64,000 nt of DNA from Candidatus Obscuribacteraceae bacterium (GCA_044226015.1 JBGAHS010000003.1:736001-800000); one strand, 5' to 3'; numbered from the stretch's first letter, positions 3,545 to 49,771 are shown. Numbers and translations: made by a program. Notes: generated by a model not told the origin, from the sequence alone.

Positions 3545-3581
3545 GAAAGTGGCAGTTGAGCGAAAGCTCTCTGTCACTTTT
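3545..3581 (+). terminator. 3' hairpin of the 2681-3537 unit
   Basis: GAAAGTGGCAG...CTGTCACTTTT with inner GAGC-GAAA-GCTC. Confidence 0.7.
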
Positions 3582-3653
3582 CGACTTTTAAATCACAAAA
3601 TTCGCGCATCTCAAACCCATTCTTGTCTTTTAAACGCCTTTTTGTCTTTTAAA
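3577..3653 (+). repeat. Three copies of tail motif CTTTTT-N4-TTTAAA
   Basis: CTTTTCGACTTTTAAA 3577-3592, ATTCTTGTCTTTTAAA 3619-3634, CTTTTTGTCTTTTAAA 3638-3653. Confidence 0.8.
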
Positions 3654-3654
3654 T

Positions 3655-6150
3655 TCACTCTGATTGACTGCCAGAATCTCGTCGGCTAGTCAGCAAAAGA
3701 GAGACGAACGCGCAAACGTAGAACAAGACGCCGCAAATAAATGAAAGTTGAATTCCAGCGAGCATTGCCACAATTATTGCCAGCACTGAGGTCCAAACTG
3801 ATGATGCACCGTTTATGCCCCAGAGCCACGGAGTAAGCGCCGGAGCCTGCTTGAGGGCGACTCTCATACCAGCAGGAAAGCCACTGCCAAGAGCCAGTCC
3901 GAGAGGAAAAAGCAAAGCAACGGCGCTAAGAATTCGCCCGCTGATTTGATATTCCACGCCAGCATCTAAAATGCCACCAGATACGCTGGCATACAAAACG
4001 AGCAAAAGCAGAATGATCGCTGGCGCTGCTACTGCTTGAATCTTGCCTTTGCTAATCCAAACCTCAGACAGAGCACTTCCTACTCCGGTAGAAAGTAAGA
4101 GAGCGAAAAGAACAACGGAAAGACCATAAACAGGATGCCCAAGGAAAATTGTCAGCCTCTCAATTTGAGACATCTCAATAAACATGAAGCCAGCACCGAT
4201 GCAAAAAAAGTATGCCAATAGATACTTCGAACTTTTGATCAGCTCTTTGTCGCTGCTCTGAAGATAGGGAATTCTGATGCAATAAACAGCGATGACAAAA
4301 GTTGCAAGTCCTGCCACAAGCAAAAGCAAGCCAGCCATTATATTGCTTATGTTCATGTTGCGTGCAAAAGCTTGCGGGTCAGTCAAATGAGCCAGACTGA
4401 TTGGCTGAAAGAAAAACGGACTATCATCCGTAGGAGCCTGCAGGTTGAAGGGCACGGAAGCAGCGGCCTTGGCGGGGTCTTCTCCTCTGGCTAAAGCAGC
4501 AAGTATTGGGTCTTTAGAATTATGCAAATCGTACATAAGTTCAAAGCCCATATCAGCTGCATACTGTTCTATCTTTTTGTAATCATCTTCTGAAAATGAG
4601 TCTGGAGAAAGAAGCAAGGTTCCCACACCATCGGGAATCATGTTTTCTTTCAAAGGCATATTGCGCAAAACAATGATGTGAGAAGAAGGATCCTTCCCTT
4701 GCAATTTCAAACTGTGTGCCGAAAGAGCCACAAGCCGGTAAAACTCTGATGGAATGCCGTGTGCGTACCATCGCGACACGGTCAAAACACCATGTGGCTT
4801 TAAGTGATTCAACAAAATTCGAAAAGACTCGACAGTATAGAGCCCATTTTCAGACAGAGTATAGGCACCGCTAGCAGTGGCAGCCCAGGTGTCAATCATC
4901 GACACCTGAATAATGTCAAACTTACTTTGAGTTCTGGTGATATAGCTGCGCGCCTCATCGTTTACTAGCGTAACGCGCGAGTTTGATTTCAGGTGGCCGC
5001 TGTAGTCCGCAAAGCGATCATGCACAGTGTTTAATATGTTTTCGTTGATATCGATCGCTGTCACATGACTATCACCAAATATCAGCGCAGACAGCAAATC
5101 TTTGCCGCCACCAGCTCCCACAATAGCGGTTTCAGACGCTGGGCGAATATAGTGCACCGCATTCGAGATTTCGTATTTAAGATGGTCTACTACACTTGCA
5201 TCTCCAGAAAATTTCAGTATGGGTGTTGCGGCCCCTCCATCAATGTCCAGATATAAGAACCTGGCTTTCACTCCCGCAACACGTGGGCTAAGTCCATAGG
5301 GATCGGCAACGCTCATTGCCTCTCCATCTCCGAAAACTCTCACACGCGAAAATGAATTCCAGAGATGATAAAGGTTCGCAGACTCTCTCAGTCCTTTTGT
5401 CCACCCAATCGTAATCAATGGGTGCTGGCTGCGGTATGTCATAGCTTGAACTGCTGTTCCTAAAGCGAAGAGCAGCGAACAAACAATTGCAAGCAAACTC
5501 AAGTTCTTGTTTTTTTCTGGACTTGAGCAATTGAACAGCAACGCTGCCAGAGACGCTACCGCTGAGATCATAAACACACAACTAATACCATCCATCAGCC
5601 TCAAGGCCCAGACCAGAGCCAAACACCCGAGGGCGGCGCCAACAAGGTCTGCAGCATATAGCGCAGCAACCTGTTTGGGAAAGCGCGTCAAACAAAGCGA
5701 AATCACAATTCCGCTTGCACTAAAGGCCGCTATGGTAAAAGGTATTGTCACAAGTAACGCCAGCACCATGATTACCGCAGCATTAGCATCACCAAGCAAA
5801 TAGGGAAAGTACAAATGCACAAGAATAGCTAGTGCAGCAAGAATGCTGAAGCCTGCAGAAAACAGAGACATATGTTCACTGCTGCGTTCTTGCGTGAAAA
5901 AAGCAGGGCGCAAATATACGGCGATGCCTCCAGCGGCAAGTCCAGTAATAGTCACAGAGATTGATAGAAAAGCAAAGTGATACCAGGTAGTAACACTAAA
6001 AATGCGGGTGAGCAAGACCTCATACATGAGCGTTGCCATAGCCAGCAAGAATAGACCCGCAAACGTGCGAAAATTTGCCACTTCGAAAACTCTTTCAGAT
6101 AGTAATACCGAACTAATCGATCTTACACGATAGGGATCTAAGTCGGCCAC
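3655..6150 (-). CDS. Membrane-bound spermidine synthase-like SAM-dependent transferase (multi-TM N- and C-termini)
   Basis: IVGAGGGKD SAM-binding loop, DEARSYI, FDIIQ, LYTVESF, APTDDSPFF motifs flanked by TM helices. Confidence 0.8.
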   Translation of the reverse strand: MADLDPYRVRSISSVLLSERVFEVANFRTFAGLFLLAMATLMYEVLLTRIFSVTTWYHFAFLSISVTITGLAAGGIAVYLRPAFFTQERSSEHMSLFSAGFSILAALAILVHLYFPYLLGDANAAVIMVLALLVTIPFTIAAFSASGIVISLCLTRFPKQVAALYAADLVGAALGCLALVWALRLMDGISCVFMISAVASLAALLFNCSSPEKNKNLSLLAIVCSLLFALGTAVQAMTYRSQHPLITIGWTKGLRESANLYHLWNSFSRVRVFGDGEAMSVADPYGLSPRVAGVKARFLYLDIDGGAATPILKFSGDASVVDHLKYEISNAVHYIRPASETAIVGAGGGKDLLSALIFGDSHVTAIDINENILNTVHDRFADYSGHLKSNSRVTLVNDEARSYITRTQSKFDIIQVSMIDTWAATASGAYTLSENGLYTVESFRILLNHLKPHGVLTVSRWYAHGIPSEFYRLVALSAHSLKLQGKDPSSHIIVLRNMPLKENMIPDGVGTLLLSPDSFSEDDYKKIEQYAADMGFELMYDLHNSKDPILAALARGEDPAKAAASVPFNLQAPTDDSPFFFQPISLAHLTDPQAFARNMNISNIMAGLLLLVAGLATFVIAVYCIRIPYLQSSDKELIKSSKYLLAYFFCIGAGFMFIEMSQIERLTIFLGHPVYGLSVVLFALLLSTGVGSALSEVWISKGKIQAVAAPAIILLLLVLYASVSGGILDAGVEYQISGRILSAVALLFPLGLALGSGFPAGMRVALKQAPALTPWLWGINGASSVWTSVLAIIVAMLAGIQLSFICGVLFYVCAFVSLLLTSRRDSGSQSE

Positions 6151-6461
6151 TTTACTAGGCCAGCAAACAGGTTTTGGGATTTTCCAATGATCCTAGCTCA
6201 AGCTAGCGCAGACTGGGCGAAACGAGCTATCGTAGGTTCCCATGCTTAGATCTGCAGTTCTGAATCGCAAAATTATCAGCAGCAAGACGTTGTTAGCAAC
6301 AGTGGTGCAGCGGCACTAATGATGTGCGGCCCGATTTTCTGTCTAATCTGGAAAGAAAGAGCCGCTAAACGCCCAAAACGTCCGCCTGGCGGGGTTACAT
6401 CTCACTCATCTACTTGCATGGCTGATGCACTGGTGGCTAAGGTGGTGGCGTCACTCCATAT

Positions 6462-6618: not shown

Positions 6619-7884
6619 ATGAATACCAAATCCGGTTCCGCTTCACCGCGGAAGCTTTCTCATGCCGCGCGTATCGACCGTCTCGGCAATGTTGCCGTGA
6701 ACGTCGGCCTCGGCCTTCAGCCCGGTCAGGAACTCATTCTCTCGGCCCCGGTCGAAGCGCTTCCTCTGGTTCGCGCCATCACCGAGCACGCCTACAAGGC
6801 GGGCGCTCCCGCGGTGCACACGTTCTACACGGACGAGCAATCGACGCTGGCGCGCTACAAGTTCGCTCACGACCACACCTTCGACCACGCGGCCACCTGG
6901 CTCGTCGACGGCATGGCCTCCGCCCTTCGCAACGGTGCGGCTCGCCTCTCCATCACCGGCAGCCACCCTTCGTTGCTCGCCGAACAAGACCCCAGCAAGG
7001 TGGGACGAGCCATGAAGGCTTCGTCTGCCGCCAGCCGCGGGGTCGCGAAAATCATCGGCGGCTTCGAGGTCAACTGGTCCATCGTGTCCTTCGCCAGCCC
7101 GGCCTGGGCCCGAATGGTCTTCCCGCACCTGCCCGAGAAGCAAGCCGTCAAGGCTCTTTGGGAAGCCATCTTCGCCGCATCGCGCGTCAACTGCGAAGAC
7201 CCGGTGGCCGAATGGAAGGCGCACAATAAGGCGCTCGCCACCCGCACCGCCTGGCTCAACGACAAGCGCTTCTCCACCCTGCACTTCAAGGGTCCCGGCA
7301 CCGACCTGAAGGTCGGCCTGGCCGACGACCACACCTGGTGCGGCGGCGCAGAGAAAGCAAGAAACGGTGTCGTCTGCAATCCGAACATCCCCACCGAGGA
7401 GGTGTTCACGACGCCGCACATGCTGCGCACCGAGGGCTACGTCAGCTCCACCAAGCCGCTCTCGAACAATGGCGCCCTCATGGACGGCATCCGCGTTCGA
7501 TTCGAAGGCGGTCGCATCGTCGAAGCGAGCGCAAGCAAGGGTCAGGACGCTCTCGATCGCATGATCAACGCGGACGAAGGCGCGCGCCGGCTGGGTGAAG
7601 TTGCCCTGGTGCCGCACTCCTCGCCCATCTCGGCCAGCGGCGTGCTGTTCTACAACACGCTCTACGACGAGAACGCCGCCAGCCACATCGCGCTGGGTCG
7701 TGCGTACAACACCTGCATCAGCAACGGCGGCAACATGAGCCAGGACGAGCTGAGCAGCCGTGGCTCGAACGACAGCGTCATTCACGTCGACTGGATGATC
7801 GGCTCTGACAAGGTCGACGTCGACGGCATCAACGCCGACGGCAGCGTCGAGCCGGTGATGCGCAAGGGTGAGTGGGCGCAGTAA
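6619..7884 (+). CDS. Aminopeptidase, peptidase family M29 (AmpS/PepS/AmpT type)
   Basis: NIPTEEVFT, LGEVALV, LYDENAASHIALG, SVIHVDWMIG motifs; ATG at 6619 after GAAAGG. Confidence 0.93.
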   Translation: MNTKSGSASPRKLSHAARIDRLGNVAVNVGLGLQPGQELILSAPVEALPLVRAITEHAYKAGAPAVHTFYTDEQSTLARYKFAHDHTFDHAATWLVDGMASALRNGAARLSITGSHPSLLAEQDPSKVGRAMKASSAASRGVAKIIGGFEVNWSIVSFASPAWARMVFPHLPEKQAVKALWEAIFAASRVNCEDPVAEWKAHNKALATRTAWLNDKRFSTLHFKGPGTDLKVGLADDHTWCGGAEKARNGVVCNPNIPTEEVFTTPHMLRTEGYVSSTKPLSNNGALMDGIRVRFEGGRIVEASASKGQDALDRMINADEGARRLGEVALVPHSSPISASGVLFYNTLYDENAASHIALGRAYNTCISNGGNMSQDELSSRGSNDSVIHVDWMIGSDKVDVDGINADGSVEPVMRKGEWAQ

Positions 7885-8029
7885 GGGTCAATTCCTGAAC
7901 AGGAGGTCCGCCATCATATCCGGTGCGCGGACCTCCTACTTTCCTAGCGTACCATCAGCAACTTTGGTGGCAGAACGGGTCTAACGATGCTGCTCTGCCA
8001 CCTTCCATGCTGATTCCCAAAAGGAGGAC

Positions 8030-8332
8030 ATGATGTCCTGGTACACCGGAAAAGTGCTTCAAATCCAAACGGAGGCGAAGTCAACCACCACAACCGAAAA
8101 ATCTCTGCTTTCGTGCAAGACCAGCACAACGACCGAAACGGTCTATTACCTGCTGATCCAAATCGAAGAACACAAGCAACCGATCGCCCTGCGAGGTTCC
8201 GCAAAATGGATGCCGGAACTTCCGCTTGTCCTGGTCGGCGACACCATCAGCTTCACCATTCCGCGCAACTCCGCGCAGTATGGATTTGCACAACTCAGCA
8301 TCCATTTCAACAAAAGAGAGCCCAACAAATGA
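8030..8332 (+). CDS. Hypothetical beta-rich protein (100 aa)
   Basis: SD AGGAGG; stop overlaps next start (ATGA). Confidence 0.7.
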   Translation: MMSWYTGKVLQIQTEAKSTTTTEKSLLSCKTSTTTETVYYLLIQIEEHKQPIALRGSAKWMPELPLVLVGDTISFTIPRNSAQYGFAQLSIHFNKREPNK

Positions 8333-8685
8333 AAACCCTCTACTCCTTCGTCGGCGGCATGGCTGCCTCCGCAGTCGCATTCCTCGCCGTCAACGAATTC
8401 GTCGTCAACAACGTCTTCACGTTCTGGCCCTCGCTTCTGGTCGGCGCCGCCTTCGGCTTCATCAGCAGCCTCGTCCTCGGCGTGACCGACACGACCAAGC
8501 TGGTGCCGGCCGGCATCACTTCCGGGCTGAGCCTCGCGGGCTTCATCGCCATTCTCGGCGGTATCGCTTCGCTGAGCGCTGGCGCCGGTGCAGGACTGCT
8601 CTCGCTGCCTGCCGCGATCGCCGTCTTCGGCTTTGTCGGTGTCATGGGAGGCATCGGTTACTCGCTCGGCAACAAGCTGGGCTGA
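8329..8685 (+). CDS. Small Gly/Ala-rich 4-TM membrane protein (118 aa)
   Basis: ATGA coupling to upstream gene; hydrophobic; C-ending codons. Confidence 0.8.
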   Translation: MKTLYSFVGGMAASAVAFLAVNEFVVNNVFTFWPSLLVGAAFGFISSLVLGVTDTTKLVPAGITSGLSLAGFIAILGGIASLSAGAGAGLLSLPAAIAVFGFVGVMGGIGYSLGNKLG

Positions 8686-8809: not shown

Positions 8810-8825
8810 CTTTTTGCATTTTAAA
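8810..8825 (+). repeat. Tail motif copy
   Basis: CTTTTTGCATTTTAAA. Confidence 0.75.
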
Positions 8826-9010
8826 TATGCTGACACCATATACAATGGCACACAACACAACACCGAATATGACACCATCACGTTTCATTTGTTTTCACCC
8901 TCAGCTTGCTACCGACCATAGTAGATACACATGAAATTATTGAATCGCGCGAGTCCCCACGAGCAAGATCGGGTAGATCTTGCTAAGACAAATACTCTGC
9001 TGGAGCGTAA

Positions 9011-12099: not shown

Positions 12100-12510
12100 T
12101 TATCTCTTCTTTCCACCTTTTTTAGCTTTTTTAGCTGGCTTAGCAGCAGCCTTTTTGGCTGGCTTTGCAGCAGCTTTCTTAGCTGGCTTTTCAGCCTTTG
12201 CCTTAGCAACGAGGTTCAATGATGGTTGCTTAGCGCGGCCATTAACGATGTCCTTGAGTTCCTTGCCTGCACGGAAAGCCGGTACTTTAGCAGCAGCGAT
12301 CTTCAGCGGGGCGAGGGTACGAGGGTTACGGCCTGTGCGTGCTTTGCGTTGACGGCGCTCGAAGGTACCAAAACCAACAAGGGTCACCTTGTCGCCCTTG
12401 GAGAGAGCACCAGTAACTGCGTGGATAAATGCGGACAATGTACGTGTAACTTCGGACTTTGGTTGCTCAGTGAGTTTTGCCACTTGATCAACGAGCTCAG
12501 CTCGATTCAT
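12100..12510 (-). CDS. hup: DNA-binding protein HU with Lys/Ala-rich PAKK tail
   Basis: MNRAELV..VTLVGFGTF..RKARTGRNPRT..VPAFRAGKELK. Confidence 0.95.
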   Translation of the reverse strand: MNRAELVDQVAKLTEQPKSEVTRTLSAFIHAVTGALSKGDKVTLVGFGTFERRQRKARTGRNPRTLAPLKIAAAKVPAFRAGKELKDIVNGRAKQPSLNLVAKAKAEKPAKKAAAKPAKKAAAKPAKKAKKGGKKR

Positions 12511-26207: not shown

Positions 26208-26336
26208 TTTAAAATACAAAAAGCGCTGGAAAAGCAGATGATTCGGTTGTTTCAACACGAACACGCCGCAATGGGCCAGAATATTTTGTAGCGGGCATAC
26301 CTCTAACGGATCCCCAACAGTTTAAAACTGAAAAAG
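26208..26336 (-). repeat. Two tail motif copies (minus-strand orientation)
   Basis: TTTAAAATACAAAAAG 26208-26223; TTTAAAACTGAAAAAG 26321-26336. Confidence 0.78.
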
Positions 26337-26424: not shown

Positions 26425-27063
26425 TCAGTTCTTTAACCGGTCAAATGCCACTGCACCGTCCGCAAGAGCATCTTTCTTGCTACCCACTTTGCCAGTTTCC
26501 AGCACACAGGAACGGAGCAGTTTGTCCTGGACCCGGTAAGCGGCCCGAACTTCGTAGTAAAACCCACCGGCCACACCCCTTACCCACAACTGAGTTTCCT
26601 GCGTTCCCTTCAGTTCGCGCTTCACTAAGGCAAGGGTGTTATTTTCCTTCGGGTAGAGGTCTCGGAAGAACCTGGCGATGATTCTTGCGGGAAGAATCAG
26701 AACCAGACTGCAGGGAAGCGCGAGAATTGCAGTCACCGCCATGGTACAGAGCGTATCGAACACTCCCTCACCCGGGCGCCACCAGCTGCTCATGAGAATG
26801 CCGAGGCAGGCGAGGTAGCAAGCAGCAGCCAGAGAATCGAGATTGCTTGCCACACGAATCGGCAGGAAGACGGCCAGTCGAATCAGTAACGCGATGAGCA
26901 TCGAGCCGAAGAGCGAGATGAATGCAGCACAGCCAACCGTCAGAAGGAGGTCTGCAGCACCGTTAATTCCATCCCACCAGTTCCACAGCAGCAGCCCGAA
27001 GCAGAGCAGAAAAGAGAAAGCTGCCAGATTGAAGTGACCGCCCGTTTTAGCTTGCGCTCTCAA
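26425..27063 (-). CDS. Hypothetical 4-TM membrane protein with soluble C-terminal domain
   Basis: TTG start after SD AGGAG; four hydrophobic segments. Confidence 0.75.
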   Translation of the reverse strand: MRAQAKTGGHFNLAAFSFLLCFGLLLWNWWDGINGAADLLLTVGCAAFISLFGSMLIALLIRLAVFLPIRVASNLDSLAAACYLACLGILMSSWWRPGEGVFDTLCTMAVTAILALPCSLVLILPARIIARFFRDLYPKENNTLALVKRELKGTQETQLWVRGVAGGFYYEVRAAYRVQDKLLRSCVLETGKVGSKKDALADGAVAFDRLKN

Positions 27064-28485: not shown

Positions 28486-28542
28486 TTTTAAAGTCAAAAA
28501 GTGGATGAAGAACTTTCCGCCAGTGCTTTAAAATGCGAAAAG
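28486..28542 (-). repeat. Two tail motif copies 41 bp apart
   Basis: TTTTAAAGTCAAAAAG 28486-28501; TTTAAAATGCGAAAAG 28527-28542. Confidence 0.78.
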
Positions 28543-28593: not shown

Positions 28594-28857
28594 TTACCAG
28601 GTTCTCATTTCGGCCGGTGTCCAGAGAAACTCTGTCGGCTTGTCGCCTTCCCGGTCGTGGAGAGATACGAAGTAGACGTTAGTGATGCTCTGCGCCACGT
28701 CCTGCAGATACTCGGTGTAAACCCGACCATCGGGCAGGGTGTAGCGACGCAGGGGCTCGAAGACCGCCGACAAGCTGCCGACGACCTCAACCTTGCAGGC
28801 GGTTTGAACGAGCTGCTTGGCGCATTCATTCAAACCTGCATAACGACTTCTTCTCAT
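28594..28857 (-). CDS. Hypothetical protein, paralog of 2681-3037
   Basis: SD GGAG; shared motifs YAGLN, LRRYTLPDGRVYTEYLQ, YFVSLHD, LWT..E. Confidence 0.85.
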   Translation of the reverse strand: MRRSRYAGLNECAKQLVQTACKVEVVGSLSAVFEPLRRYTLPDGRVYTEYLQDVAQSITNVYFVSLHDREGDKPTEFLWTPAEMRTW

Positions 28858-28899
28858 CAGAAAGCTCCGTTGTGAAAACCGAAGAGAGATTGCCCGAGC

Positions 28900-29073
28900 T
28901 TAGTGCTCGGAGCGCTTACCGGCGACGTTCATCAGAACGATGATGCCAAGGACGAGCCCTGCCGTCAGCACATTGCCGACGAACTGCTTGCCGCTCTTCA
29001 ACGCGCGGATGACGCGAGAACGCGGCGCGGTGGGCTCTTCGATGAGCGTGGGGTTCAGAATGATGTCGTGCAT
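28900..29073 (-). CDS. 57-aa single-TM microprotein MHDIILNPTL...GLVLGIIVLMNVAGKRSEH
   Basis: Hand-translated; SD GGAG; C-ending codons. Confidence 0.75.
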   Translation of the reverse strand: MHDIILNPTLIEEPTAPRSRVIRALKSGKQFVGNVLTAGLVLGIIVLMNVAGKRSEH

Positions 29074-29119
29074 AGGTTCATTTCTCCGTGTGGTGGTGAA
29101 GCGTTATCGTTCTTCGCGA

Positions 29120-29194
29120 TTAGCTGCGGATGTTGCGAGCACCGATCAGCATGATGGCGAAGATGATGAGGACGATGAAAGCGAGAGCTTCCAT
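29120..29194 (-). CDS. 24-aa TM microprotein MEALAFIVLIIFAIMLIGARNIRS
   Basis: Hand-translated; SD AAGGAG 7 nt upstream; ATC/GTC/TTC codon bias. Confidence 0.75.
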   Translation of the reverse strand: MEALAFIVLIIFAIMLIGARNIRS

Positions 29195-29230
29195 TTAGTT
29201 TCTCCTTGTTTGTTCGATAGACGAAATCCG

Positions 29231-29296
29231 CTATCTGCCGACCAATTGAATCAGCAGCAGAAAGAGGATCATGAGGAATACCAAAACTGCAGGCAT
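29231..29296 (-). CDS. 21-aa TM microprotein MPAVLVFLMILFLLLIQLVGR
   Basis: Hand-translated; SD AGGA. Confidence 0.6.
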   Translation of the reverse strand: MPAVLVFLMILFLLLIQLVGR

Positions 29297-29332
29297 TGGA
29301 TGTTTCCTGTACGACTTTCCTACGACTCGGTC

Positions 29333-29428
29333 TCAGCCTTTCTTGCGACGCTTGATCTCGCCGATGACGGCGACAACTCCGGCGCCGATGAAGAAGGCAA
29401 TGAGGACCGCTCCGATAACGTGTTCCAT
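29333..29428 (-). CDS. 31-aa TM microprotein MEHVIGAVLIAFFIGAGVVAVIGEIKRRKKG
   Basis: Hand-translated; SD AAGGAAAGG; TM helix plus basic tail. Confidence 0.75.
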   Translation of the reverse strand: MEHVIGAVLIAFFIGAGVVAVIGEIKRRKKG

Positions 29429-29469
29429 GCTAGTGACCTTTCCTTGTTTCTTGCTTGTTCAGTTGAATT

Positions 29470-29727
29470 TCAGTCCTTCCGGCAGATGCTACGCAGAACG
29501 TAGATCAGTGACTGCAGCGGAATCGAGAGCAGAAGCAGCCCGATGGCCACAATCCAGAAGCTGAAGAGCGAGTAGAAGGCAGCCAACACGGCGGTTCCGA
29601 AGAGCCCACCGAGGCTGTCAATTCCCGACCACATGCAGGACATCCAGAGGATGAACGTGATCAGGAACGAGAGAGGACCGAGAATGCTCTGGTGCCACTC
29701 TTTCTTCTCAGAAGAGTTCTGGTTCAT
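29470..29727 (-). CDS. 85-aa hydrophobic membrane protein
   Basis: ORF track; two to three hydrophobic segments; in array. Confidence 0.7.
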   Translation of the reverse strand: MNQNSSEKKEWHQSILGPLSFLITFILWMSCMWSGIDSLGGLFGTAVLAAFYSLFSFWIVAIGLLLLSIPLQSLIYVLRSICRKD

Positions 29728-29748
29728 TCAAGTTTCTTTGCGCTGAAA

Positions 29749-29826
29749 TCAGTTGATGTCGATTACTCGGGTTTTTGCACTGAGCTGGCGTGAGCCGAAG
29801 AGCAGATGCATGAGCTTGAGGAGCAT
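29749..29826 (-). CDS. 25-aa microprotein MLLKLMHLLFGSRQLSAKTRVIDIN
   Basis: Hand-translated; SD TAAGGA overlapping the upstream stop. Confidence 0.6.
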   Translation of the reverse strand: MLLKLMHLLFGSRQLSAKTRVIDIN

Positions 29827-29835
29827 GGCGATTCC

Positions 29836-30042
29836 TTACTTGCGCTTGCGGTTCTTCGTGCTGTACCTCTCCACGCCCATCATGTCGAGCATGCCCCAGA
29901 GGCTGACGAGCGCGGTGCCCATGAAGACAGCGCTGGTAGCACCCCAGAGTAGAACCTTCTGGGCGGGGTCCAGGTTGCCGAAAGCGTTGGTGAGCGCGGC
30001 GACGACAGCCAGGACGAAAAGAATGATCATGTTGATCTTCAT
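29836..30042 (-). CDS. 68-aa 2-TM protein with basic tail
   Basis: ORF track; SD AAGGG. Confidence 0.75.
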   Translation of the reverse strand: MKINMIILFVLAVVAALTNAFGNLDPAQKVLLWGATSAVFMGTALVSLWGMLDMMGVERYSTKNRKRK

Positions 30043-30138
30043 CTGTTACTTCCCTTTAGCAGGAGCCAGTGTGCTAGGCGAACTTACTTGAATCTGCCAG
30101 GAAGCGTGATCACGAGGACCACGCTTCCTGCAGCCGCT

Positions 30139-30489
30139 TCAGGTGCTGGACCTCGCGATCGCAGCAGCCTCTCGGGCGTAGCGGATGCCCTCCTGGCGCT
30201 TAGCCTTGATCATCCCAGCCGACACGACGAGACGGGTGCTGGCGCCGCTGAAATGCAAGCAATAGCGAGCAGTTTCGAGCAGGCGACGGCAGTCATCGTT
30301 GTGCGGCGCGTTGCGTCCGACGATCTCCTCGGCATCGCGAATCTCATTGCTGAGTTGCTCGCTGAGCTGGTGGATCTCTTCGGGAGTCGTGGTGTCCTTC
30401 TTCTGGGTCAACAGAAGATAGAGGAAACCAGCGATGACAACGCCGGCGATGAGGGCGGGCTGAATGAACTCAGGATGCGAAAGCAGCAT
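30139..30489 (-). CDS. 116-aa N-terminally anchored helical protein, first gene of array
   Basis: SD GAAGGA; TM helix then helical region. Confidence 0.75.
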   Translation of the reverse strand: MLLSHPEFIQPALIAGVVIAGFLYLLLTQKKDTTTPEEIHQLSEQLSNEIRDAEEIVGRNAPHNDDCRRLLETARYCLHFSGASTRLVVSAGMIKAKRQEGIRYAREAAAIARSST

Positions 30490-30986: not shown

Positions 30987-31002
30987 TTTAAAATGCAAAA
31001 AG
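30987..31002 (-). repeat. Tail motif copy downstream of pepF
   Basis: TTTAAAATGCAAAAAG; additional phased AAAAAG tracts at 31063-31096. Confidence 0.75.
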
Positions 31003-31162: not shown

Positions 31163-32980
31163 TTACTTAGCCGGCTGCGCAGCCAAGTTCTCGAACTCCG
31201 CAATGTAGTTCTCGAAGACGTTCAGCGCCTGCTGAATTGGAGCCGGCGTGGAGAGATCCACACCTGCACCTTTGAGCAGGTCGAGACTGTACTGCGAAGA
31301 GCCACCCGAAAGGAAACGCAGATAGCGTTCCATGGCGGGCTTGCCTTCAGCGATGATTTGCTGAGACAAAGCCACTGCCGCCGAGATGCCCGTCGCATAC
31401 TGGTAGACGTAGAACGAGCTGTAGAAGTGGGGAATTCTCGCCCACTCAATCTCAACCAGGTCATCAACCTTCGCAACGGCACCGTAGTAGCGCTCGTTGA
31501 GGTCCTTGTACAGACCGCAGAGCAGCTCAGGAGTGAGAGCTTCGCCAGCTTCAGCGCGAGCGTGAGCTTCCTTCTCAAACTCGGCGAAAAGCGTCTGACG
31601 GAAGAGAGTTGCCCTGAAACCGTCGAGCGCATGATTGATGATGTACATCTTCAAGTTGCGGTCTTCGGTGTTCTTGAGCAGATAATCAGTCAGCAGCATC
31701 TCGTTGCAGATGGAAGCGACTTCTGCCACGAACAACGTGTAGTTGCCATAGCAGTAAGGCTGATTCTGCCGAGTCAGGAACGAGTGCATCGAGTGTCCGG
31801 CTTCGTGAATCAGCGTGAACATGGAATCCATGCTGTCCTGCCAGTTCAAAAGCATGAACGGATGTGTCGAGTACGAGCCCCAGCTGTACGCACCAGAACG
31901 CTTGTTGGCGTTTTCGTGCACGTCAACCCAGCGCTGATCGAAACCGCGCATCAGAGTGTCGACGTATTCCTTGCCCAGGGGAGCCAGCGCTTCGAGGCAC
32001 CTGGCGCGAGCATCGGCGTGGGAAATCTTGTAGTCGACTTCCTTGACCATCGGAACGTAGAGGTCGCAGATGCGCAACTCATCGACACCCAGAAGGCGCT
32101 TGCGCAGCTCCAGGTAACGATGCAGTTTGGGCAGGTTGGAGTTAACCGTCGAGACGAGATTGCCGTAGACATCTACCGGGATGTTGTGCGGACCGAGCGC
32201 AGCTTCCAGCGCCGAGCCGTACTTGTGCGCCCGGGCGAAGAAGATGTTGCCCTTCACCTGACCGGCATAGTTGGCCGCCAGCGTGTTACGCAACGCATTG
32301 TAGGACGAATGCATGCCGGTGAAGCCAGCAATACGCACGTCGCGATTCTGGCTTTCCAGGAAACGCGATGCATAGTTGCCGTGAGTGAGCTGAACGTCCT
32401 TGCCGTTCTCGTCCTTGAGCACGGGCAGTTTCAGGTCGGCGTTGTTGAGCATCTCGAAGACACGCTCTGGGGTCTGAGCCACTTCGGAAGCTTCCGCCAG
32501 AAGTTGTTCCAGCTCGGCACTCAGCACATGAGGACGCTGACGGTCGAGGTCATCGAACTCGTGCTGATAGAGCTTGAGCTCCTTGTCCGCCAGCATGTAA
32601 GCCTGAACGGTTTCCGGCGGGGTAGCAAGAAGCTCAGGGGTCATGTACGAGCTAGCGGAAGATACGCTCACGGAGAGTGTGCCAGCGCGAGAAGCCAGCG
32701 CCTGGTATTCAGCGACAGTCGTGTCCTGATGCAGACGCATGTTGGAGTAGCAGTACAGCCGCCCAACGATTTCGCCGATTTCATCGCGAAGCTTGAGCGC
32801 TGAAAGCAACGATGCCGCCGACTCTGCCAGTTTGCCCTTGAAAGCAGCAAGCTTGGGAATCAAGTCGGTAACTTTGGCGAAGTCTTTCTCCCAGTCGGCG
32901 TTGTTAGCGTAAACGCTTTCCAGGTCCCAGGTGTCCTCAACGGCGAGGTCTGTTCGTTTGGGAATTGTGTGAGAACTCAT
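31163..32980 (-). CDS. pepF: Oligoendopeptidase F (M3B)
   Basis: TWDLESVY, KRSGAYS, TLIHEAGHSMHS, FVAEVAS, WARIPHFY..FYVYQYATG; ATG 32980 after AAGGAG. Confidence 0.95.
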   Translation of the reverse strand: MSSHTIPKRTDLAVEDTWDLESVYANNADWEKDFAKVTDLIPKLAAFKGKLAESAASLLSALKLRDEIGEIVGRLYCYSNMRLHQDTTVAEYQALASRAGTLSVSVSSASSYMTPELLATPPETVQAYMLADKELKLYQHEFDDLDRQRPHVLSAELEQLLAEASEVAQTPERVFEMLNNADLKLPVLKDENGKDVQLTHGNYASRFLESQNRDVRIAGFTGMHSSYNALRNTLAANYAGQVKGNIFFARAHKYGSALEAALGPHNIPVDVYGNLVSTVNSNLPKLHRYLELRKRLLGVDELRICDLYVPMVKEVDYKISHADARARCLEALAPLGKEYVDTLMRGFDQRWVDVHENANKRSGAYSWGSYSTHPFMLLNWQDSMDSMFTLIHEAGHSMHSFLTRQNQPYCYGNYTLFVAEVASICNEMLLTDYLLKNTEDRNLKMYIINHALDGFRATLFRQTLFAEFEKEAHARAEAGEALTPELLCGLYKDLNERYYGAVAKVDDLVEIEWARIPHFYSSFYVYQYATGISAAVALSQQIIAEGKPAMERYLRFLSGGSSQYSLDLLKGAGVDLSTPAPIQQALNVFENYIAEFENLAAQPAK

Positions 32981-33167: not shown

Positions 33168-33408
33168 ACAGGGGATGGACTGTGGACGTCCACACGTTAC
33201 GGAGCTGGGCGAAGAGAAGTAAAGGGAGTTTTTTCTGAACAAACAAAGCCTACGCTCCCCTTGGCAGCCGGAATGCAAAGTATATTGGGCTTTCTGTCAA
33301 AGTCCCCGGAATTAGCTGGCTAGAATCTAACACCGAATATAGAATCAACAGATAGTAGAGCTGACAAAGCGCTGGATTTTATTGTCAATCACCAAGGCCA
33401 AACAACGA

Positions 33409-35975: not shown

Positions 35976-36515
35976 ATGCAGACACAAGACACGTTCTGGA
36001 CCACTTATGTGGACCTTGGCGCAAATGCTCAGAAACTTGGACATACAGAAATAGCCGACAAGATGCTTGGGGCAGCTCTTGAGGAATCAAGGCGCTTGGG
36101 ACACTTGAACTTGCCACCACCGGCGGTGTTCAACAAATTGGCCGCGGCTTTTTATGAAAAGAGTGATTTCAAAAAGGCAGAGGCCGTTTATAAGAGCGCA
36201 CTGGCAACTTACGAGAAAAGACTTACTGAAGATCATCCACATCTCAGCAACGTACTTCTAAACCTGGCTGAACTATATTTTTCGCAGGGCAAGTACGGTA
36301 TGGCAGAGCCTCTATTTGAGCGCACCTTGCTCATCGATGAAAGAAAATTTGGAGGACTTCACCCCTGCATGTATCGCCGCATGCTTAAGCTCTCATGGAT
36401 TTATTGCACACTGAACAAGCACAGCGACGCTTATGCATTGTTGAAGAGAGCACAAGAACTAAAAGAGAAAAATGAAGACCTACAACCAGAAGCTTTTATT
36501 CTAGCGACAGTATAG
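35976..36515 (+). CDS. TPR protein
   Basis: LNLAELYFSQGKYGMAEPLFERTL kinesin-light-chain-type TPRs. Confidence 0.88.
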   Translation: MQTQDTFWTTYVDLGANAQKLGHTEIADKMLGAALEESRRLGHLNLPPPAVFNKLAAAFYEKSDFKKAEAVYKSALATYEKRLTEDHPHLSNVLLNLAELYFSQGKYGMAEPLFERTLLIDERKFGGLHPCMYRRMLKLSWIYCTLNKHSDAYALLKRAQELKEKNEDLQPEAFILATV

Positions 36516-36572
36516 TAGAGACCGCAGAGCCATTCAGATAAAGCTTAAAGCTACGAGGACAGGAAACTGTCC

Positions 36573-37322
36573 TCATTCTTTTGGGTCGAGTTTCTCCAGA
36601 TACTCCAGATCTTTCTTACTCAAAGCAACTTTTGAAAGCAAATCGGGGCGGCGTTCCTTTGTTCGCTTCAACGCCTGCTCACGACGCCACTTCTCTATGA
36701 GTTTGTGATTTCCAGAAAGCAATACTTCCGGCACATCCATGCCCCGATAATTTGCGGGCTTAGTGTATTGAGGACCCTCAAGAAGGTTTTCAACGAAGCT
36801 TTCCTGGGCCAGAGAAATGCTTTTTCCAATAACTCCGGGAATCAACCTTCCGACTGCATCGATGACAATCAATGCTGGCAATTCGCCACCAGTTAAAACG
36901 TAGTCTCCAACAGAAAACTCATGTGTGGCTAGGGAACAAATGCGCTCATCAAACCCCTCATAGTGCCCGCAAATCAAAACGATATCTTGCTCTTTGCTCC
37001 AGCTCCAGGCATCGTCCTGGTGCAATGGCTTTCCTTGCGGGCTTGTTAGCAAAATGGGAATATTAGTGTTGTCCGGTGTCGCGCCAATTTGAGCAAGAAT
37101 GTCTTCATAGGCAGCAAAGAACGGTTCTGGTTTTAACACCATTCCAGCGCCGCCACCATAGGGAGTATCATCTACTTTTCTGTACTTGTCCTGGCAATAG
37201 TCGCGAGGATTGTATGTTTTTACAGCAAACTCGCCCTTTTCAATGCCACGTTTCACGATGCTGACCGAGCAATAACGCTCGATTAATTCAGGAAAGAGGG
37301 TGATTACATGAAAAGTAAGCAA
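36573..37322 (-). CDS. trmD: tRNA (guanine-37-N1) methyltransferase
   Basis: VITLFPE, VDDTPYGGGAGM, CGHYEGFDER, GDYVLTGGE. Confidence 0.97.
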   Translation of the reverse strand: MLTFHVITLFPELIERYCSVSIVKRGIEKGEFAVKTYNPRDYCQDKYRKVDDTPYGGGAGMVLKPEPFFAAYEDILAQIGATPDNTNIPILLTSPQGKPLHQDDAWSWSKEQDIVLICGHYEGFDERICSLATHEFSVGDYVLTGGELPALIVIDAVGRLIPGVIGKSISLAQESFVENLLEGPQYTKPANYRGMDVPEVLLSGNHKLIEKWRREQALKRTKERRPDLLSKVALSKKDLEYLEKLDPKE

Positions 37323-39300: not shown

Positions 39301-39351
39301 CATGCCAGCTCTACTACAAGCCATCGCAGTTCAGAGCTCTGGCTCTCGACC

Positions 39352-41396: not shown

Positions 41397-41610
41397 GCCA
41401 GCCACCTACTACCGGCACTCGTAGGGCGTAGCGAAAGGCGAAAGGCGAAACTCATCCAAGACCCGTCCAGAACACAAAGTTGATGCACATATAAAGTTGC
41501 ACTGATTGCTTCTGGTCATAGCAACGCTACCACTCGGCATAGTACGAAGAGCCGAAAAAAAAGAGTTCCCACGCCACGTACTTGCAAAAAAGTGCCAAAA
41601 AGACAAGAAA

Positions 41611-41658: not shown

Positions 41659-42057
41659 TCACTTCACGCGCCGCCGAGACACCGAGAAACGACCGCCAGA
41701 GCGATTGTGAATCTCCGTGTAGGTGACTGCGAAGTTACGTTCGCGAAGCAGCTTGATTGCGCCCTTGCGAACGTTTTCGTGCGGAACCTTCACGACGTGA
41801 ATCAGCGCTTCGGATTCACCGAAATGCCGCGACACGTATTCGTGATACTGAGCCTGAACCCAGTCGGCGAGCTCCAGCACCGCGCGTTCCTCCCGATTGA
41901 GATAGGGACCATTCGAGATGACGCGATGCTTCTTGAGAAAAGCACGCTTCAAGCCCAAACGGCTGTGGAACACCGCAGGCGTGTAACCCGGGTTCTCGAC
42001 GACCACACGAAGCTCAGGCTTCGTGCTTTTGCTCTTGCTTGTCAAAACCAAAGTCAT
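41659..42057 (-). CDS. Hypothetical basic protein, paralog of 42136-42594
   Basis: SD AAGGAG; VENPGYTPAVF, ELADWV..HEY..RH. Confidence 0.8.
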   Translation of the reverse strand: MTLVLTSKSKSTKPELRVVVENPGYTPAVFHSRLGLKRAFLKKHRVISNGPYLNREERAVLELADWVQAQYHEYVSRHFGESEALIHVVKVPHENVRKGAIKLLRERNFAVTYTEIHNRSGGRFSVSRRRVK

Positions 42058-42135
42058 TTGCTGACTCCTTTCATGCTAAGCGTCCCTATCCTTATCAGGG
42101 ACTGCAATTGAGGAGTCAGCCAGATGACTGCTCCT

Positions 42136-42594
42136 CTACGACCAGCGACGCACCATGAAGAAACTGGTGCCTCTGTCGCTGTGCCTCGTTTTCACGGCGA
42201 TGCCGCGAGACTGCATTGTCCGAATCGATTCGGCGATGACCGCATCGGACGGAACGCAATCGGTGAAGGCGACCGATTCGAGCTGCGCGACATGTCGGGC
42301 GCAATGCTCATTGTGGCTTTGTTCGAGCCAATTGGCGAACTCCACCGCAGAGACCCGAGCACTCGGTTTGGAACCGGTGCGGGCGAAGCCGATGACGTTC
42401 TGCATCACTCTTCTGTCCGCCCCATGCAACGCCGCAACACGCGGGTCATACGGGACAGGAAGCTGATTCCGAACGAGTCGGAACTTCGCCTCGAAAGCGC
42501 GACGGCGCTTCAACCCGCTCTCAAAAACCGCAGGACGAAACCCAGGGTTGTCGACGGCGAGATATATTCCAGAAGTGATGGCTCCTGAGTTCAT
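42136..42594 (-). CDS. Hypothetical basic protein, paralog of 41659-42057
   Basis: SD GGAG; VDNPGFRPAVF, EFANWL..NEH..RH. Confidence 0.8.
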   Translation of the reverse strand: MNSGAITSGIYLAVDNPGFRPAVFESGLKRRRAFEAKFRLVRNQLPVPYDPRVAALHGADRRVMQNVIGFARTGSKPSARVSAVEFANWLEQSHNEHCARHVAQLESVAFTDCVPSDAVIAESIRTMQSRGIAVKTRHSDRGTSFFMVRRWS

Positions 42595-42605
42595 TCCGTT
42601 CTCCG

Positions 42606-42621
42606 TTTAAAAGCCAAAAAA
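42606..42621 (-). repeat. Tail motif copy after the M4 gene
   Basis: TTTAAAAGCCAAAAAA. Confidence 0.65.
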
Positions 42622-42626
42622 AAATA

Positions 42627-42673
42627 GGGTGCTGGAGCCCAATGCAGCGAACTGCATCAGAACTCCAGCACCC
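42627..42673 (-). terminator. 3' hairpin/terminator of the M4 peptidase gene
   Basis: GGGTGCTGGAG/CTCCAGCACCC with inner ATGCAG/CTGCAT, T9 run on minus strand. Confidence 0.8.
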
Positions 42674-42705
42674 ACGAACTCAGTTACTCAGTCCGGAAGC
42701 GGAAC

Positions 42706-43728
42706 TTACGACTTCGACGGAACGACGCCGACCGCGTCCCAGGCCTTCTTCAGCGACGACTCGAGCGAGCCGAAGCCGAGCGGACCGCAGGCCGCGATGG
42801 TGTCGTGGGCGAACTTGGCGAAGTCCGGCTTCGAACCCGACGTGGCGCGAGCCGCGTACCAGATCTTGCCGGCCTTCTCCCAGGCGTAGCCGCCGACATC
42901 CGTGGCGAACAGCGCGAACGCGCGGTTCGGAATGCCGGAGTTGTAGTGGACGCCGCCGTTGTCGTCCCAGGTCTTGACGAAGTCCTTCATGTGCGCCGGC
43001 TGCGGGTCACGGCCGAGCTTCGGGTCGTTGTAGGCCGTGCCGGGCTTCATCATGTTGCGGATGCCTTCGCCCTTGATGCCGGGAACGAAGATGCCGCGAC
43101 CGAGCACCCAGTCGATCTGGTCGACCGTCTGCTTCTTCGAGTAGGCCTCGATGAGCTTGCCGAACACGTCCGAGTGGCTCTCGTTGAGGGCGCCGGACTG
43201 GTAGGAGTACTCGAGGTTCGACTCGAACTCGGTGACGCCGTGCGTGATCTCGTGACCGCACACGTCGAGGATGACGAACGACGAGAAGATCGTGCCGTCA
43301 CCGTCGCCGTAGGTCATCTGGGAGCCGTCCCAGTAGGCGTTGTCGTAGTCCTGGTCGTAGTGGACGGTCGAAACGAGCGCCATGCCCTTGTTGTCGATCG
43401 AGTTGCGGCCGTGGACGTTCGTGTAGAAGTCGCGCACGAAGCCGGTGAAGTCGTAGGCCTTGTTCACGACCTCGTCCTTCGTCGGAGCATCGCCCTCGAA
43501 ACGAGCCTTCACGCCGGGACGGCTGGTGCCGTTCTGCGCGTCGTAGACCTGGCGAGCGGAGTCGCCGGTGACACGGGGACGGATGCGCGAGCGGAACAGA
43601 CCCTGGGTCTTGGCGAGGGTGTTCAGCGCGGACAGGTTGTTGGCATCGCGGCTCGCGATCTGCAGCAGCAGGTGCGAAGGAACGATACCGGTGAGACGGC
43701 GAACGCCATTGGTGGGAAGCTGAGACAT
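42706..43728 (-). CDS. Protealysin-like M4 metalloprotease (short propeptide, no signal peptide)
   Basis: IVPSHLL propeptide motif, NAYWDG, HEITHG, GALNESHSD, GGVHYNSGIPN. Confidence 0.93.
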   Translation of the reverse strand: MSQLPTNGVRRLTGIVPSHLLLQIASRDANNLSALNTLAKTQGLFRSRIRPRVTGDSARQVYDAQNGTSRPGVKARFEGDAPTKDEVVNKAYDFTGFVRDFYTNVHGRNSIDNKGMALVSTVHYDQDYDNAYWDGSQMTYGDGDGTIFSSFVILDVCGHEITHGVTEFESNLEYSYQSGALNESHSDVFGKLIEAYSKKQTVDQIDWVLGRGIFVPGIKGEGIRNMMKPGTAYNDPKLGRDPQPAHMKDFVKTWDDNGGVHYNSGIPNRAFALFATDVGGYAWEKAGKIWYAARATSGSKPDFAKFAHDTIAACGPLGFGSLESSLKKAWDAVGVVPSKS

Positions 43729-48145: not shown

Positions 48146-49407
48146 CAGTGCACCTCCAGCAAAGTCGCTATTCCCATACCGCCACCTATGCAGAGAGAGG
48201 CTATGCCTCTGCGCAGCTTACGCGCTTTCAACTCATGAGCCAGTGTCAAAATCAGCCTTGCACCAGACATTCCAATGGGGTGACCCAGCGCGATAGCACC
48301 ACCATTAACATTTACTCTCTCGCGATCAAGCGCCAGAAGTTTCTCGCAAGCGAGGTATTGAGCTGCAAAAGCTTCATTGATCTCGAAAAGATCAATATCG
48401 CGCAATCCCAAATTATTTCGCTCTAGCAAAGCACCAATTGCGAAAACCGGTCCCAACCCCATTTGATCGGGGTCCACACCAACAACAACACTGTCGACAA
48501 GCTCACACAAAGGCTCTGCACTAATTCTCTCGACACATTCCTCATTCGCCAGAGCGAGCACACAGGCACCATCATTGATACCAGAACTATTTCCTGCAGT
48601 AATATCTGTTGTTCGAGCTTCCGGTGGCTTCATACCAAGAAACTTAAGCGCAGTCTTATTGAGCTTCATGCCGCCTTTCAAACTCGCAAGTTTTTCAAGG
48701 GATGTCTCGCGAATGTGCTCATCTTGATCAAACAGTCCGCGACCTTTTACAACAATGCCTTCAATTTCTTTCTTGAATCGGCCATCATTGCGAGCCTTCG
48801 CGGCCAGCTGCTGGGAACGAAATGCATACGCATCTGCGTCTTGCCTGCTAATGCCGTAAGTGTCAGCCAAACGTTGCGCCGTAGCCGCCATGAAAGCTGT
48901 TCTCGTGTCAAAAACGGTGTCTCCTGGTACGAGTCCATCATCGGCAATAGCTCCAGTGACAAGCCGAGGCCCATATGGAAAGTATTGAGCCAGTGGTCCG
49001 GTATAACGTAGTTTAGCCGGAAGAAGGTAAGGCACTCCGGACATCGACTCAGCACCACCAGCCAGATAAAGATATCCGTTTCCCAGAGCGATTTCCTTCA
49101 TGGCAAGATTAACAGCTTCCATGCCAGATCCACATTGACGCTGAACTGTCATAGACGGAATGCTGGAAGGTAACCCTGCAGCAAGAGCCGCACAGCGAGC
49201 CGTGTTCGGAGCATAAGAAGACTGATACCCATGGCCAAGAATAAAGCCCTGTATCTCTTCTGTTGATACCTTAGCTCTTCTAAGACAGGCGTTTATGGCT
49301 TCTTGTGTAAGTGTCTGTACCGGAACACTGCGCAGCGATTTCTTGAAGCTGCCGATCGCCGTCCTTGCACCTGTCAGCAGCCACGACCTGTGCCGTTTCG
49401 ATGTCAT
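48145..49407 (-). CDS. Acetyl-CoA C-acyltransferase (thiolase)
   Basis: QCGSG, NEAFAAQ, GHPIGMSG, CIGGGMG; coupled to fadJ; start 49407 or 49440. Confidence 0.93.
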   Translation of the reverse strand: MTSKRHRSWLLTGARTAIGSFKKSLRSVPVQTLTQEAINACLRRAKVSTEEIQGFILGHGYQSSYAPNTARCAALAAGLPSSIPSMTVQRQCGSGMEAVNLAMKEIALGNGYLYLAGGAESMSGVPYLLPAKLRYTGPLAQYFPYGPRLVTGAIADDGLVPGDTVFDTRTAFMAATAQRLADTYGISRQDADAYAFRSQQLAAKARNDGRFKKEIEGIVVKGRGLFDQDEHIRETSLEKLASLKGGMKLNKTALKFLGMKPPEARTTDITAGNSSGINDGACVLALANEECVERISAEPLCELVDSVVVGVDPDQMGLGPVFAIGALLERNNLGLRDIDLFEINEAFAAQYLACEKLLALDRERVNVNGGAIALGHPIGMSGARLILTLAHELKARKLRRGIASLCIGGGMGIATLLEVH

Positions 49408-49673
49408 AGCACCCCCATCCGCCCAAGCCTCAACACTCAATTTATAGCATCAAGCGAAACTTTCAGCCTTCACCCTGACAACAGCCCAAACAAATCTTAT
49501 GAAATGCATCTCATTACATCGGGAAAGACTTTTGTCTCCTGTCCCCCGGCTGCAGCACAGGCAGCACAGGCACCATATACGGTGCATAAGAAAGATCCTG
49601 TTTGCTAATAAATTTGCCGCAAGCAAAAGAGAGAAGTCGCTTAGAACAGCACAAGAAGCAAGAAATACACCCA

Positions 49674-49771
49674 TTTAAACGTGAAAAAGGCGAAAAAGAT
49701 TCTGAGATTCGCACTTTAAACGACAAAAAGAAATTGGTAAAAGACGCAATTTGTTTTTAAAAGTCAAAAAG
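49674..49771 (-). repeat. Three tail motif copies at exact 41-bp period
   Basis: TTTAAACGTGAAAAAG 49674, TTTAAACGACAAAAAG 49715, TTTAAAAGTCAAAAAG 49756. Confidence 0.85.

Follow-up and report, generated by a model that had tools for sequence, protein, structure and literature searches.

Eukaryotic RNA polymerase I and mitochondrial transcription units are closed by roadblock terminators (TTF-I at the Sal box, Reb1, and mTERF), in which a polar site, often tandem, lies past the release point and serves one polymerase form. No native bacterial roadblock terminator was found in the literature searched. Here, we analyze site A, a polar 16-bp motif (CTTTTT-GNNT-TTTAAA) in a 64,000-nucleotide stretch of Candidatus Obscuribacteraceae bacterium (GCA_044226015.1 JBGAHS010000003.1:736001-800000; hereafter, the window, whose positions are given without a contig name). 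The source organism is an uncultured, non-photosynthetic relative of cyanobacteria, and its genome (G000; 8.19 Mb, 92% complete) carries site A behind transcription units of a compositionally distinct gene class, here termed K; other K units end in a palindrome, site B. Like the TTF-I, Reb1, and mTERF roadblocks, site A is polar, sequence specific, located just past the release point, and often tandem. Unlike them, it is bacterial, stands behind an intrinsic hairpin, is one of two alternative sites (A and B), and has a putative binder.

Chromosome domain sites such as parS, ram, matS, KOPS, and Ter occur in many copies within one domain. Sites A and B share this property, and B is partly replichore polar, but A goes with the transcription unit, the sequences are not alike, and no ParB was found in G000. 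In Agrobacterium, transferred DNA (T-DNA) consists of bordered expression units with a type IV system acting in trans. K units resemble T-DNA in being self-contained, in having a composition unlike that of the chromosome, in bearing a polar end site, and in having a type IV system in trans; they differ in carrying the site at one end, in having bacterial ribosome-binding sites, in being interleaved with housekeeping genes, and in being known from sequence alone. Unlike integron attC sites, site A does not follow a one-site-per-gene pattern, and the K arrays contain no tyrosine recombinase. Unlike the ends of Tn916-like transposons or integrative and conjugative elements, it has no partner at the other end of the unit.

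Two further comparisons draw on published reports. In MOBC origins of transfer (pAD1 TraX and CloDF13 MobC; PMC12857230, PMC5935869), as in this genome, a relaxase combining a winged helix with a restriction-nuclease fold is encoded beside a coupling protein, and direct repeats lie downstream of an inverted repeat; here, by contrast, the relaxase is chromosomal, single copy, and found order-wide, with dozens of candidate sites far away and no shared nic sequence. The actinomycete rpoB pairs (Nonomuraea rpoB(S)/rpoB(R) and Nocardia rpoB2), described with a six-residue deletion and five substitutions (PMC5431353), likewise provide two beta-subunit genes per genome and an alternative polymerase form. 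Unlike actinomycete rpoB(R), a near-identical copy that differs in the rif clusters (PMC5431353), the second gene here is 42% identical to the first, forms a clade without a relative above 47% outside itself, and sits in a fixed five-gene operon.

Site A fits no known family. No description of the A and B sites, the K class, or this rpoB2 was found in the literature searched, which was mostly non-subscription; survey supplements could mention a duplicate rpoB. To our knowledge, the general view is that a bacterium has a single core RNA polymerase and that its chromosome, recent imports aside, has a single compositional style. This family instead maintains a second style for about 250 genes, which have a promoter and end sites of their own and are intermingled with housekeeping genes down to the single gene. 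It also retains a second beta subunit of deep divergence, as well as a conjugation core that has become domesticated. Site A is the visible edge of this undescribed two-style chromosome. Two functions come into question, and each would be new if true: transfer of genes into prey, or a roadblock or insulator, native to bacteria, that serves a second polymerase. In both cases, the A and B sites can serve as baits for pull-down and as a way to map the K program in any genome of this uncultured group.

Sequence, distribution, and polarity of site A

Every coordinate and strand of the 13 window copies listed in the initial annotation was confirmed, as was the makeup of the central four nucleotides (G first in 11/13, T last in 11/13). 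Compared with CTTTTT-N4-TTTAAA, eight copies are exact and 12 fall within one mismatch, while the copy at 3619 has two. The exact pattern, present eight times in the window, was absent from 100 dinucleotide shuffles. Genome-wide, it occurs 26 times, with 21 copies on the window's contig; other spacer lengths between CTTTTT and TTTAAA yielded 0 to 7 exact matches in G000. For a matrix trained on the 13 window sites, matches were accepted at a score of at least 19, and the window was held out when genomic matches were counted. The origin domain was defined as C6:390-853 kb plus the last 157 kb of C1, with GC skew suggesting that C1 continues C6; dnaA lies at C6:816 kb, where the skew turns. Intergenic DNA of this domain (113 kb, AT 52%) contained 17 matches, compared with 2 in the 962 kb outside it (AT 55%), so that matches are not equally common in all AT-rich intergenic DNA. 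A CTTTTT arm accompanied 13/36 TTTAAA cores inside the domain versus 2/185 outside. The hup, clpC, and 23351 gene ends, described earlier as lacking the motif, indeed gave no matrix score of 14 or higher.

Sixty held-out sites refined the consensus to CTTTTTG-[ACT][AC]-TTTTAAA, with unconserved flanks; in their flank profile, no sigma-70 -10 box is conserved at a fixed distance from the TTGNNN of site A. The 14-base pattern was retrieved from all seven same-genus genomes (1 to 23 copies each; reversed control, 0 to 1) and gave two matches in total across 17 other genera of the family. Site A is thus real and genus conserved. It matches no known RNA family, RNase P being the only Rfam match in the window.

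Genes were classified using a codon model seeded on window genes, which divides G000, with approximate class edges, into 5,091 host genes (G+C content at third codon positions [GC3] of about 0.45), 170 intermediate genes, and 250 K genes. In G000, 12 of the 23 held-out site A matches stand in sense orientation downstream of a K or intermediate gene. The same holds for 31/43 matches in same-genus loci, which were picked for holding a match; the base rate in both comparisons is 17.5%. The 11 misses in G000 comprise six outside the domain, one after three tiny uncalled K-type open reading frames (ORFs), one after a gene with a GC3 of 0.54, and three in antisense. No host-gene end (0/5,039) and no K start (0/84) carries a match, the latter showing that 5' ends lack a partner site, and only 3/159 unit-internal K gene ends do. 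The earlier claim that the motif marks cassette 3' ends was correct in that the mark is real and its orientation follows the unit, but it applies to a minority of ends (8/54), and site A is not always the last element of its run. Orientation is set by the unit rather than by replication, with 11 plus and 15 minus copies on one arm, unlike Ter and KOPS, whose orientation is set by the replichore.

Relative to the unit-end hairpin, the first site A copy lies -2 to 20 nt behind it in 11/18 cases and 41 to 89 nt past it in the remaining 7/18. Site A is thus polar and holds a set position past the release point, as in roadblock terminators. In several copies, its T-run doubles as the U-tract of the terminator, but a hairpin plus U-tract does not by itself account for the motif, given the seven distant copies and its absence from host ends. 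At TTTAAA, the site has a sharp outer edge, with the convergent neighbor gene abutting it or overlapping it (no more than 6 bp away) in 6/18 cases, compared with 0/40 for site B.

Tandem copies are helically phased. The 28 tandem spacings cluster at 19, 32, 40 to 42, 52 to 53, 113, 123, 144, and 167 to 168 bp, the commonest being 19 bp (seven times) and 40 to 42 bp (seven times). Their fit to a period of 10.0 to 10.7 was reached by 0/5,000 uniform draws (P = 0.011 on 17 distinct values), with the qualification that related genomes contribute spacings that are not independent of one another and that a second peak occurs at 11.5 with a phase offset. In addition, all six converging pairs share TTTAAA at a fixed offset of 10, creating a 26-bp palindrome. 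Two such head-to-head palindromes flank a 250-bp segment with one small ORF (698,230-698,482, within C6:698205-698507). Helical phasing, the fixed overlap, and exchange with site B (see below) together point to a DNA-bound protein at site A rather than an RNA signal. In agreement, the termination or insulator protein proposed initially provides the best fit, while the RNA 3' processing signal offered beside it fits poorly.

The K gene class, site B, and the K promoter

K genes have a GC3 of 0.65 to 0.95, compared with 0.45 for host genes, and avoid A-ending codons (A3 of 0.06 versus 0.26). Ribosomal protein genes have the host style, and plain high expression was rejected on this basis as the origin of the K style. 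The shift extends to non-coding DNA: K spacers are 54% GC versus 43%, runs of eight or more AT pairs occur at 0.36 versus 3.5 per kb, and -10-like words on both strands occur at 0.3 to 0.46 of expectation versus 0.7 to 0.83. TA steps are also depleted in K DNA up to the site, and flanking host genes show no GC gradient (0.46, 0.45, and 0.46). Two parts of the origin domain contain 153 and 31 K genes, an array of 55 genes, all on the same strand, spans the ends of contigs C8 and C9, and 11 lie elsewhere. The C8/C9 array (C8:713813-735115 plus C9:1-38441) comprises about 58 kb of K genes, away from the origin, with a single site B at its far end (C8:713,655).

A Pfam scan covered 190 of 192 K or intermediate proteins of at least 150 amino acids (aa) outside the window, plus the window's own. 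It returned peptidases (M3, M4, M17, M24, M29, M41, M48, M50, S41, and TldD/E); transporters for peptides, amino acids, and nucleosides; and patatins, acyltransferases, beta-oxidation enzymes, deaminases, serpins, MoxR-vWA proteins, and PrkA-SpoVR. In outline, K genes provide lipases and peptidases together with functions in beta-oxidation and nutrient uptake. K paralogues exist for 87/154 proteins, and only 53/154 have a host-class homologue.

The initial annotation treated these units as cassettes. They are indeed distinct units, yet they are not recent foreign inserts; their codon style and orthology place them in a vertically inherited gene class of the Obscuribacteraceae. K orthologues in other genera keep the style, offset from each genome's own background, while K genes are reshuffled among units across species. 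Recent horizontal import was rejected because orthologues at 45 to 80% protein identity retain the style and because K and host DNA share avoidance of the GGCC and GATC palindromes (rho, 0.73). Assembly chimerism or contamination was likewise rejected, as 24.8- and 15.2-kb contigs of another study (run X2) bridge K/host junctions; this second strain is collinear across the junctions over the covered stretches, and relatives show the same K/host mosaic. A prophage origin was rejected after a viral scan gave only FtsH relatives at 25 to 29% identity, with no phage hallmark among the 190/192 proteins scanned. An apparent excess of K polymorphism relative to X2 was dropped: a first stretch had 20 K differences in 6.0 kb and 3 host differences in 7.4 kb (a host count that omits a 16-change cluster at trmD; including it, 19 in 7.9 kb), and this was not replicated in a second stretch (4 K differences in 6.1 kb, 11 host differences in 13.9 kb). 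The 16 differences in and just before trmD (36431-36837) probably represent a recombination tract.

Site B is the palindrome TAC[TG]A-N7-T[AC]GTA; the spacer of 7 was found in 22/66 K tails, versus 0 to 3 at other spacers. In G000, 30/35 strict copies lie at K regions, and the first copy follows the hairpin by 12 to 25 nt in 31/55 cases. Among 54 unit ends, 7 had A only, 37 had B only, 1 had both, and 9 had neither, a split that is not independent because the B matrix was trained on those tails. The two sites replace one another between species. A MoxR-vWA run closes with B in G000 and with three copies of A in G003, and the tail of the M3 oligopeptidase carries A in G003 and G005, with B following the orthologue's unit in G002, G009, and G012. 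Overall, G003 favors A and G004 favors B. Site B follows K-type genes in loci of G001, G002, G004, G006, G007, G009, G012, G013, G016, G017, G022, and G023; pattern counts of B exceed the control weakly or not at all in most genomes, and the family-wide assignment rests on position in the loci examined. On this footing, B is a family-wide palindrome that substitutes for A at orthologous units. Its TACGA half points toward the origin with a replichore bias of 27:7 (P = 0.0008; 0.014 allowing for skew). About 60 B sites occur in the origin domain, including one in the window at 41407-41423.

At their 5' ends, K units appear to share a separate promoter class, TTG-18 bp-TAGGGT. A TAGGGTG-type site precedes 23/61 K starts, mostly by 176 to 290 nt, and a TT[GT] box lies 18 bp upstream in 18 of 27 such sites. 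The leader is C-rich, G-poor, and about 200 nt long. Many tRNA promoters have TATAAT-like boxes instead, as judged by eye. The actinobacterial -10 consensus was not found in the literature searched. Only 3/45 starts in relatives scored at least 11, so the promoter is less conserved there, and its genome-wide pattern count in G000 is no higher than that of the control and hence uninformative.

A proposed protein-bound boundary and competing explanations

Our preferred reading, with a rough probability of 0.45, is that site A is a polar, protein-bound DNA boundary that would end K transcription. Two features favor it: the sites follow ordinary terminators at a short, fixed distance, and they face the unit. 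The observed layout of a K unit is a TTG-18 bp-TAGGGT site, a leader of about 200 nt, K genes, a hairpin, and then A or B. A genus-specific protein would bind the CTTTTTG-NN-T arm and TTTAAA core, in phased arrays or head to head, and the resulting boundary would stop or clear RNA polymerase at the unit end; another protein would do the same job at B across the family. More tentatively, K units could constitute a feeding or scavenging program transcribed by a polymerase with a second beta subunit.

The candidate for that subunit, rpoB2 (C11:704340-708179), encodes 1,279 aa with all six RpoB Pfam domains; no second rpoC or rpoA was found in G000. It is present in 21/24 family genomes (the three lacking it are 58, 65, and 85% complete), 1/3 other genomes of the order, and 0/13 outside the order. 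In 19/20 loci, it lies in an operon of five genes (a TPR protein, rpoB2, two exported or membrane proteins, and a winged-helix protein), and in 12/20 a NarL-type regulator is nearby. In G000, this response regulator (C11:694765-695592) is 82 to 93% identical family-wide, adjoins the operon, and is a candidate regulator or B binder. G000 has nine group 1/2 sigma factors. It also has Mfd, and the IKE stretch of canonical RpoB, which we take to be the Mfd contact surface, reads LRK in RpoB2. Rho was not found in G000, at its 92% completeness. Given that no Rho was found and that RpoB2 lacks the Mfd surface, we propose that protecting the interleaved host genes would require K units to have a dedicated, DNA-bound stop. 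The second beta subunit may thus run the K gene program.

Several observations weigh against this boundary model. Three held-out site A copies face the opposite way, and 9/54 unit ends have neither site. Unit-end hairpins have ordinary U-tracts (mean of 4.3 to 5.5 T in 10 nt), which makes the need for an additional stop less than obvious. A codirectional K-type gene (42136-42594) begins 11 bp after the site A copy at 42606, too close for a promoter to fit in between. The model accounts neither for the 27:7 replichore bias of B nor for the high-GC composition of K genes, which ribosomal protein genes do not share. A binder for site A was not found among the candidates examined: the recognition helices of the two winged-helix candidates show no changes specific to the genus, and there is no third paralogue. 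Finally, the link between rpoB2 and K genes is co-occurrence among related genomes, and G011 has rpoB2 yet no K class in the 20 kb sampled.

An alternative that we regard as unlikely makes A and B relaxase sites or borders of the T-DNA kind, from which a conjugation core would deliver K units into prey or a host for digestion from within. The winged-helix protein of the rpoB2 operon (C11:710795) is a nuclease-dead paralogue of a Replic_Relax protein at C10:63,035, a single-copy, chromosomal, MOBC-like relaxase that adjoins a coupling ATPase and VirB4, with pilin-like genes also present (C10:63035-71022 and 82065-90121). In a structure model of the operon protein, the N terminus is weak (predicted local distance difference test score below 50) with only hints of a nuclease fold, and no PDB sequence matched. 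The relaxase is encoded in 25/27 genomes of the order (22/24 in the family, 3/3 others) and 0/13 outside it, and the coupling protein was seen in 12/26 relaxase loci within 1.5-kb flanks. Its nuclease motif, D..ExD, is intact in 21/26 and decayed in five small genomes, four of which showed no K class when sampled near dnaA (6 to 20 kb each, a weak test). In G019, searches found neither of the two proteins, and 35 kb contained no B. The MOBL signature, a HUH three-histidine motif with a catalytic tyrosine (PMC5313138), is absent from the relaxase alignment.

Delivery would explain both this conserved relaxase and the K composition, which is like that of a high-GC bacterium both in codon usage and outside the coding regions, with AT runs 10-fold rarer. 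TraX, the MOBC prototype, binds direct repeats 70 to 120 bp downstream of its nic site (PMC12857230), an arrangement to which a hairpin followed by tandem A may be analogous, and T-strand delivery into prey has already been proposed for Vampirovibrio (PMC4451040). However, site A is genus specific, whereas the helix of the relaxase does not vary within the family; the site occurs at one end only; and no common nic sequence exists, the hairpins resembling RNA terminators. The likeness of GGGTG to the CloDF13 nic (PMC5935869) resolves into the -35/-10 promoter, and TAGGGTG was rejected as a nic site for that reason. Apart from one weak match, neither A nor B occurs around the relaxase (C10:40-105 kb). 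Many K enzymes belong to ordinary cytoplasmic catabolism, and only about a third have the host-class homologue counted above. No excision joint or empty site was found in contigs of other runs, which drop rare forms, and predation in this order was not found in the literature searched. The fuller scenario, in which Obscuribacterales are predators or parasites that inject into bacterial prey K cassettes in the high-GC style of that prey, cut at A/B by the relaxase, pumped by the coupling ATPase and VirB4, and transcribed with the help of RpoB2, would be slightly less probable still.

The reshuffling of K genes between units and the abundance of K paralogues would also be expected if A, like the sites of integrons or Tn916, marked an end at which site-specific recombination or insertion captures and shuffles K genes. 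Tyrosine-recombinase cores consist of two half-sites around a spacer, and the B half-sites around a free 7-bp spacer have a similar form. Converging arms sharing a core, the segment at C6:698,230-698,482 between two full palindromes, and the abutment or overlap of TTTAAA with convergent genes could be read in the same way. We nevertheless consider recombination improbable. An inverted arm was not found at 5' ends (0/84), where TTTAAA is only weakly enriched (0.33 versus 0.19 per kb at K starts); the sites close units rather than single genes; the nearest recombinase to the K arrays, which contain none, is an XerC/D-sized gene at C6:408 kb; and the second strain, collinear over the covered stretches, has no joint at any site there. 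Of the recombination site suggested initially, the sharp outer edge is what stands, set against the missing 5' partner and excision joint.

Marginally less probable is a role of A and B as nucleation points or edges of an AT-binding nucleoid protein or an origin-domain organizing factor, with any effect on transcription secondary. Restriction of the sites to the origin domain, the replichore bias of B, the failure to find ParB in G000, and the lack of TA steps and AT runs in K DNA up to the site are consistent with such a role; against this, A follows the transcription unit and not the replichore, a link to transcription is suggested by its constant spacing from the hairpin, and B also closes the 58-kb array far from the origin. 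An RNA element in the 3' tail (fail-safe U-tracts or a nuclease site) is very improbable, since the strict sense orientation and the doubling of the T-run as a U-tract are outweighed by the helical phasing, the fixed head-to-head overlap, the substitution by palindrome B, and many copies 40 to 170 nt beyond the terminator.

Features of the window and additional loci

On the plus strand, the window opens within a K run that begins about 11 kb before it; the genes at 424-3537 encode an FtsH-like AAA/M41 protease (GC3, 0.88), a 118-aa Obscuribacterales protein, and a small membrane protein. Three site A copies follow. The first (3577-3592; score, 24.6) overlaps the U-tract of the unit-end hairpin, the degenerate second (3619-3634) starts 42 bp past it, and the third (3638-3653), another 19 bp on, ends 1 bp before the stop of a convergent host gene (3655-6150). 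The next plus-strand unit, an M29 aminopeptidase (GC3, 0.83) with two small genes (6619-8685), has its promoter -10 hexamer at 6438-6443 (TTG..-18 bp-TA[AG]GGT) and is followed by site A at 8810-8825 and a weak site B at 8907-8923 (score, 12.4), making it the sole end with both.

The remaining K units lie on the minus strand. A K/intermediate membrane-protein gene (26425-27063; GC3, 0.62) is followed by site A at 26321-26336, 13 nt past its hairpin, and by a second copy 113 bp beyond (26208-26223). An array of small, mostly membrane proteins (28594-30489; GC3, 0.74 to 0.87) has site A directly behind its hairpin (28527-28542) and again 41 bp beyond (28486-28501). The M3 oligopeptidase F gene (31163-32980; GC3, 0.70) has its -10 hexamer at 33194-33199 and site A behind it at 30987-31002. 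The K run at 41659-43728 consists of an M4 thermolysin (GC3, 0.91), site A (42606-42621), two paralogous small genes, and then site B (TACTA-N7-TCGTA; 41407-41423), which lies between converging ends; weaker B copies occur at 41528-41544 and 39312-39328. A patatin gene (GC3, 0.72) and a 71-aa gene (49834-51027) form the last unit, with a -10 hexamer at 51229-51234 and three site A copies at 41-bp spacing (49756, 49715, and 49674; 49674-49771).

Elsewhere in G000, at about C6:695170-695550, three tandem, near-identical genes for hydrophobic peptides of 26 to 28 aa, in K style, precede a site A. Tandem A copies stand behind a K-class PD-(D/E)XK nuclease gene (C6:474002-474691), in G002 as in G000. 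An array of 17 tRNA genes occupies C10:356333-358584. Within the window, the gene at 12100-12510, labeled hup in the initial annotation, encodes a lysine/alanine-rich repeat protein that is 94% identical in G003.

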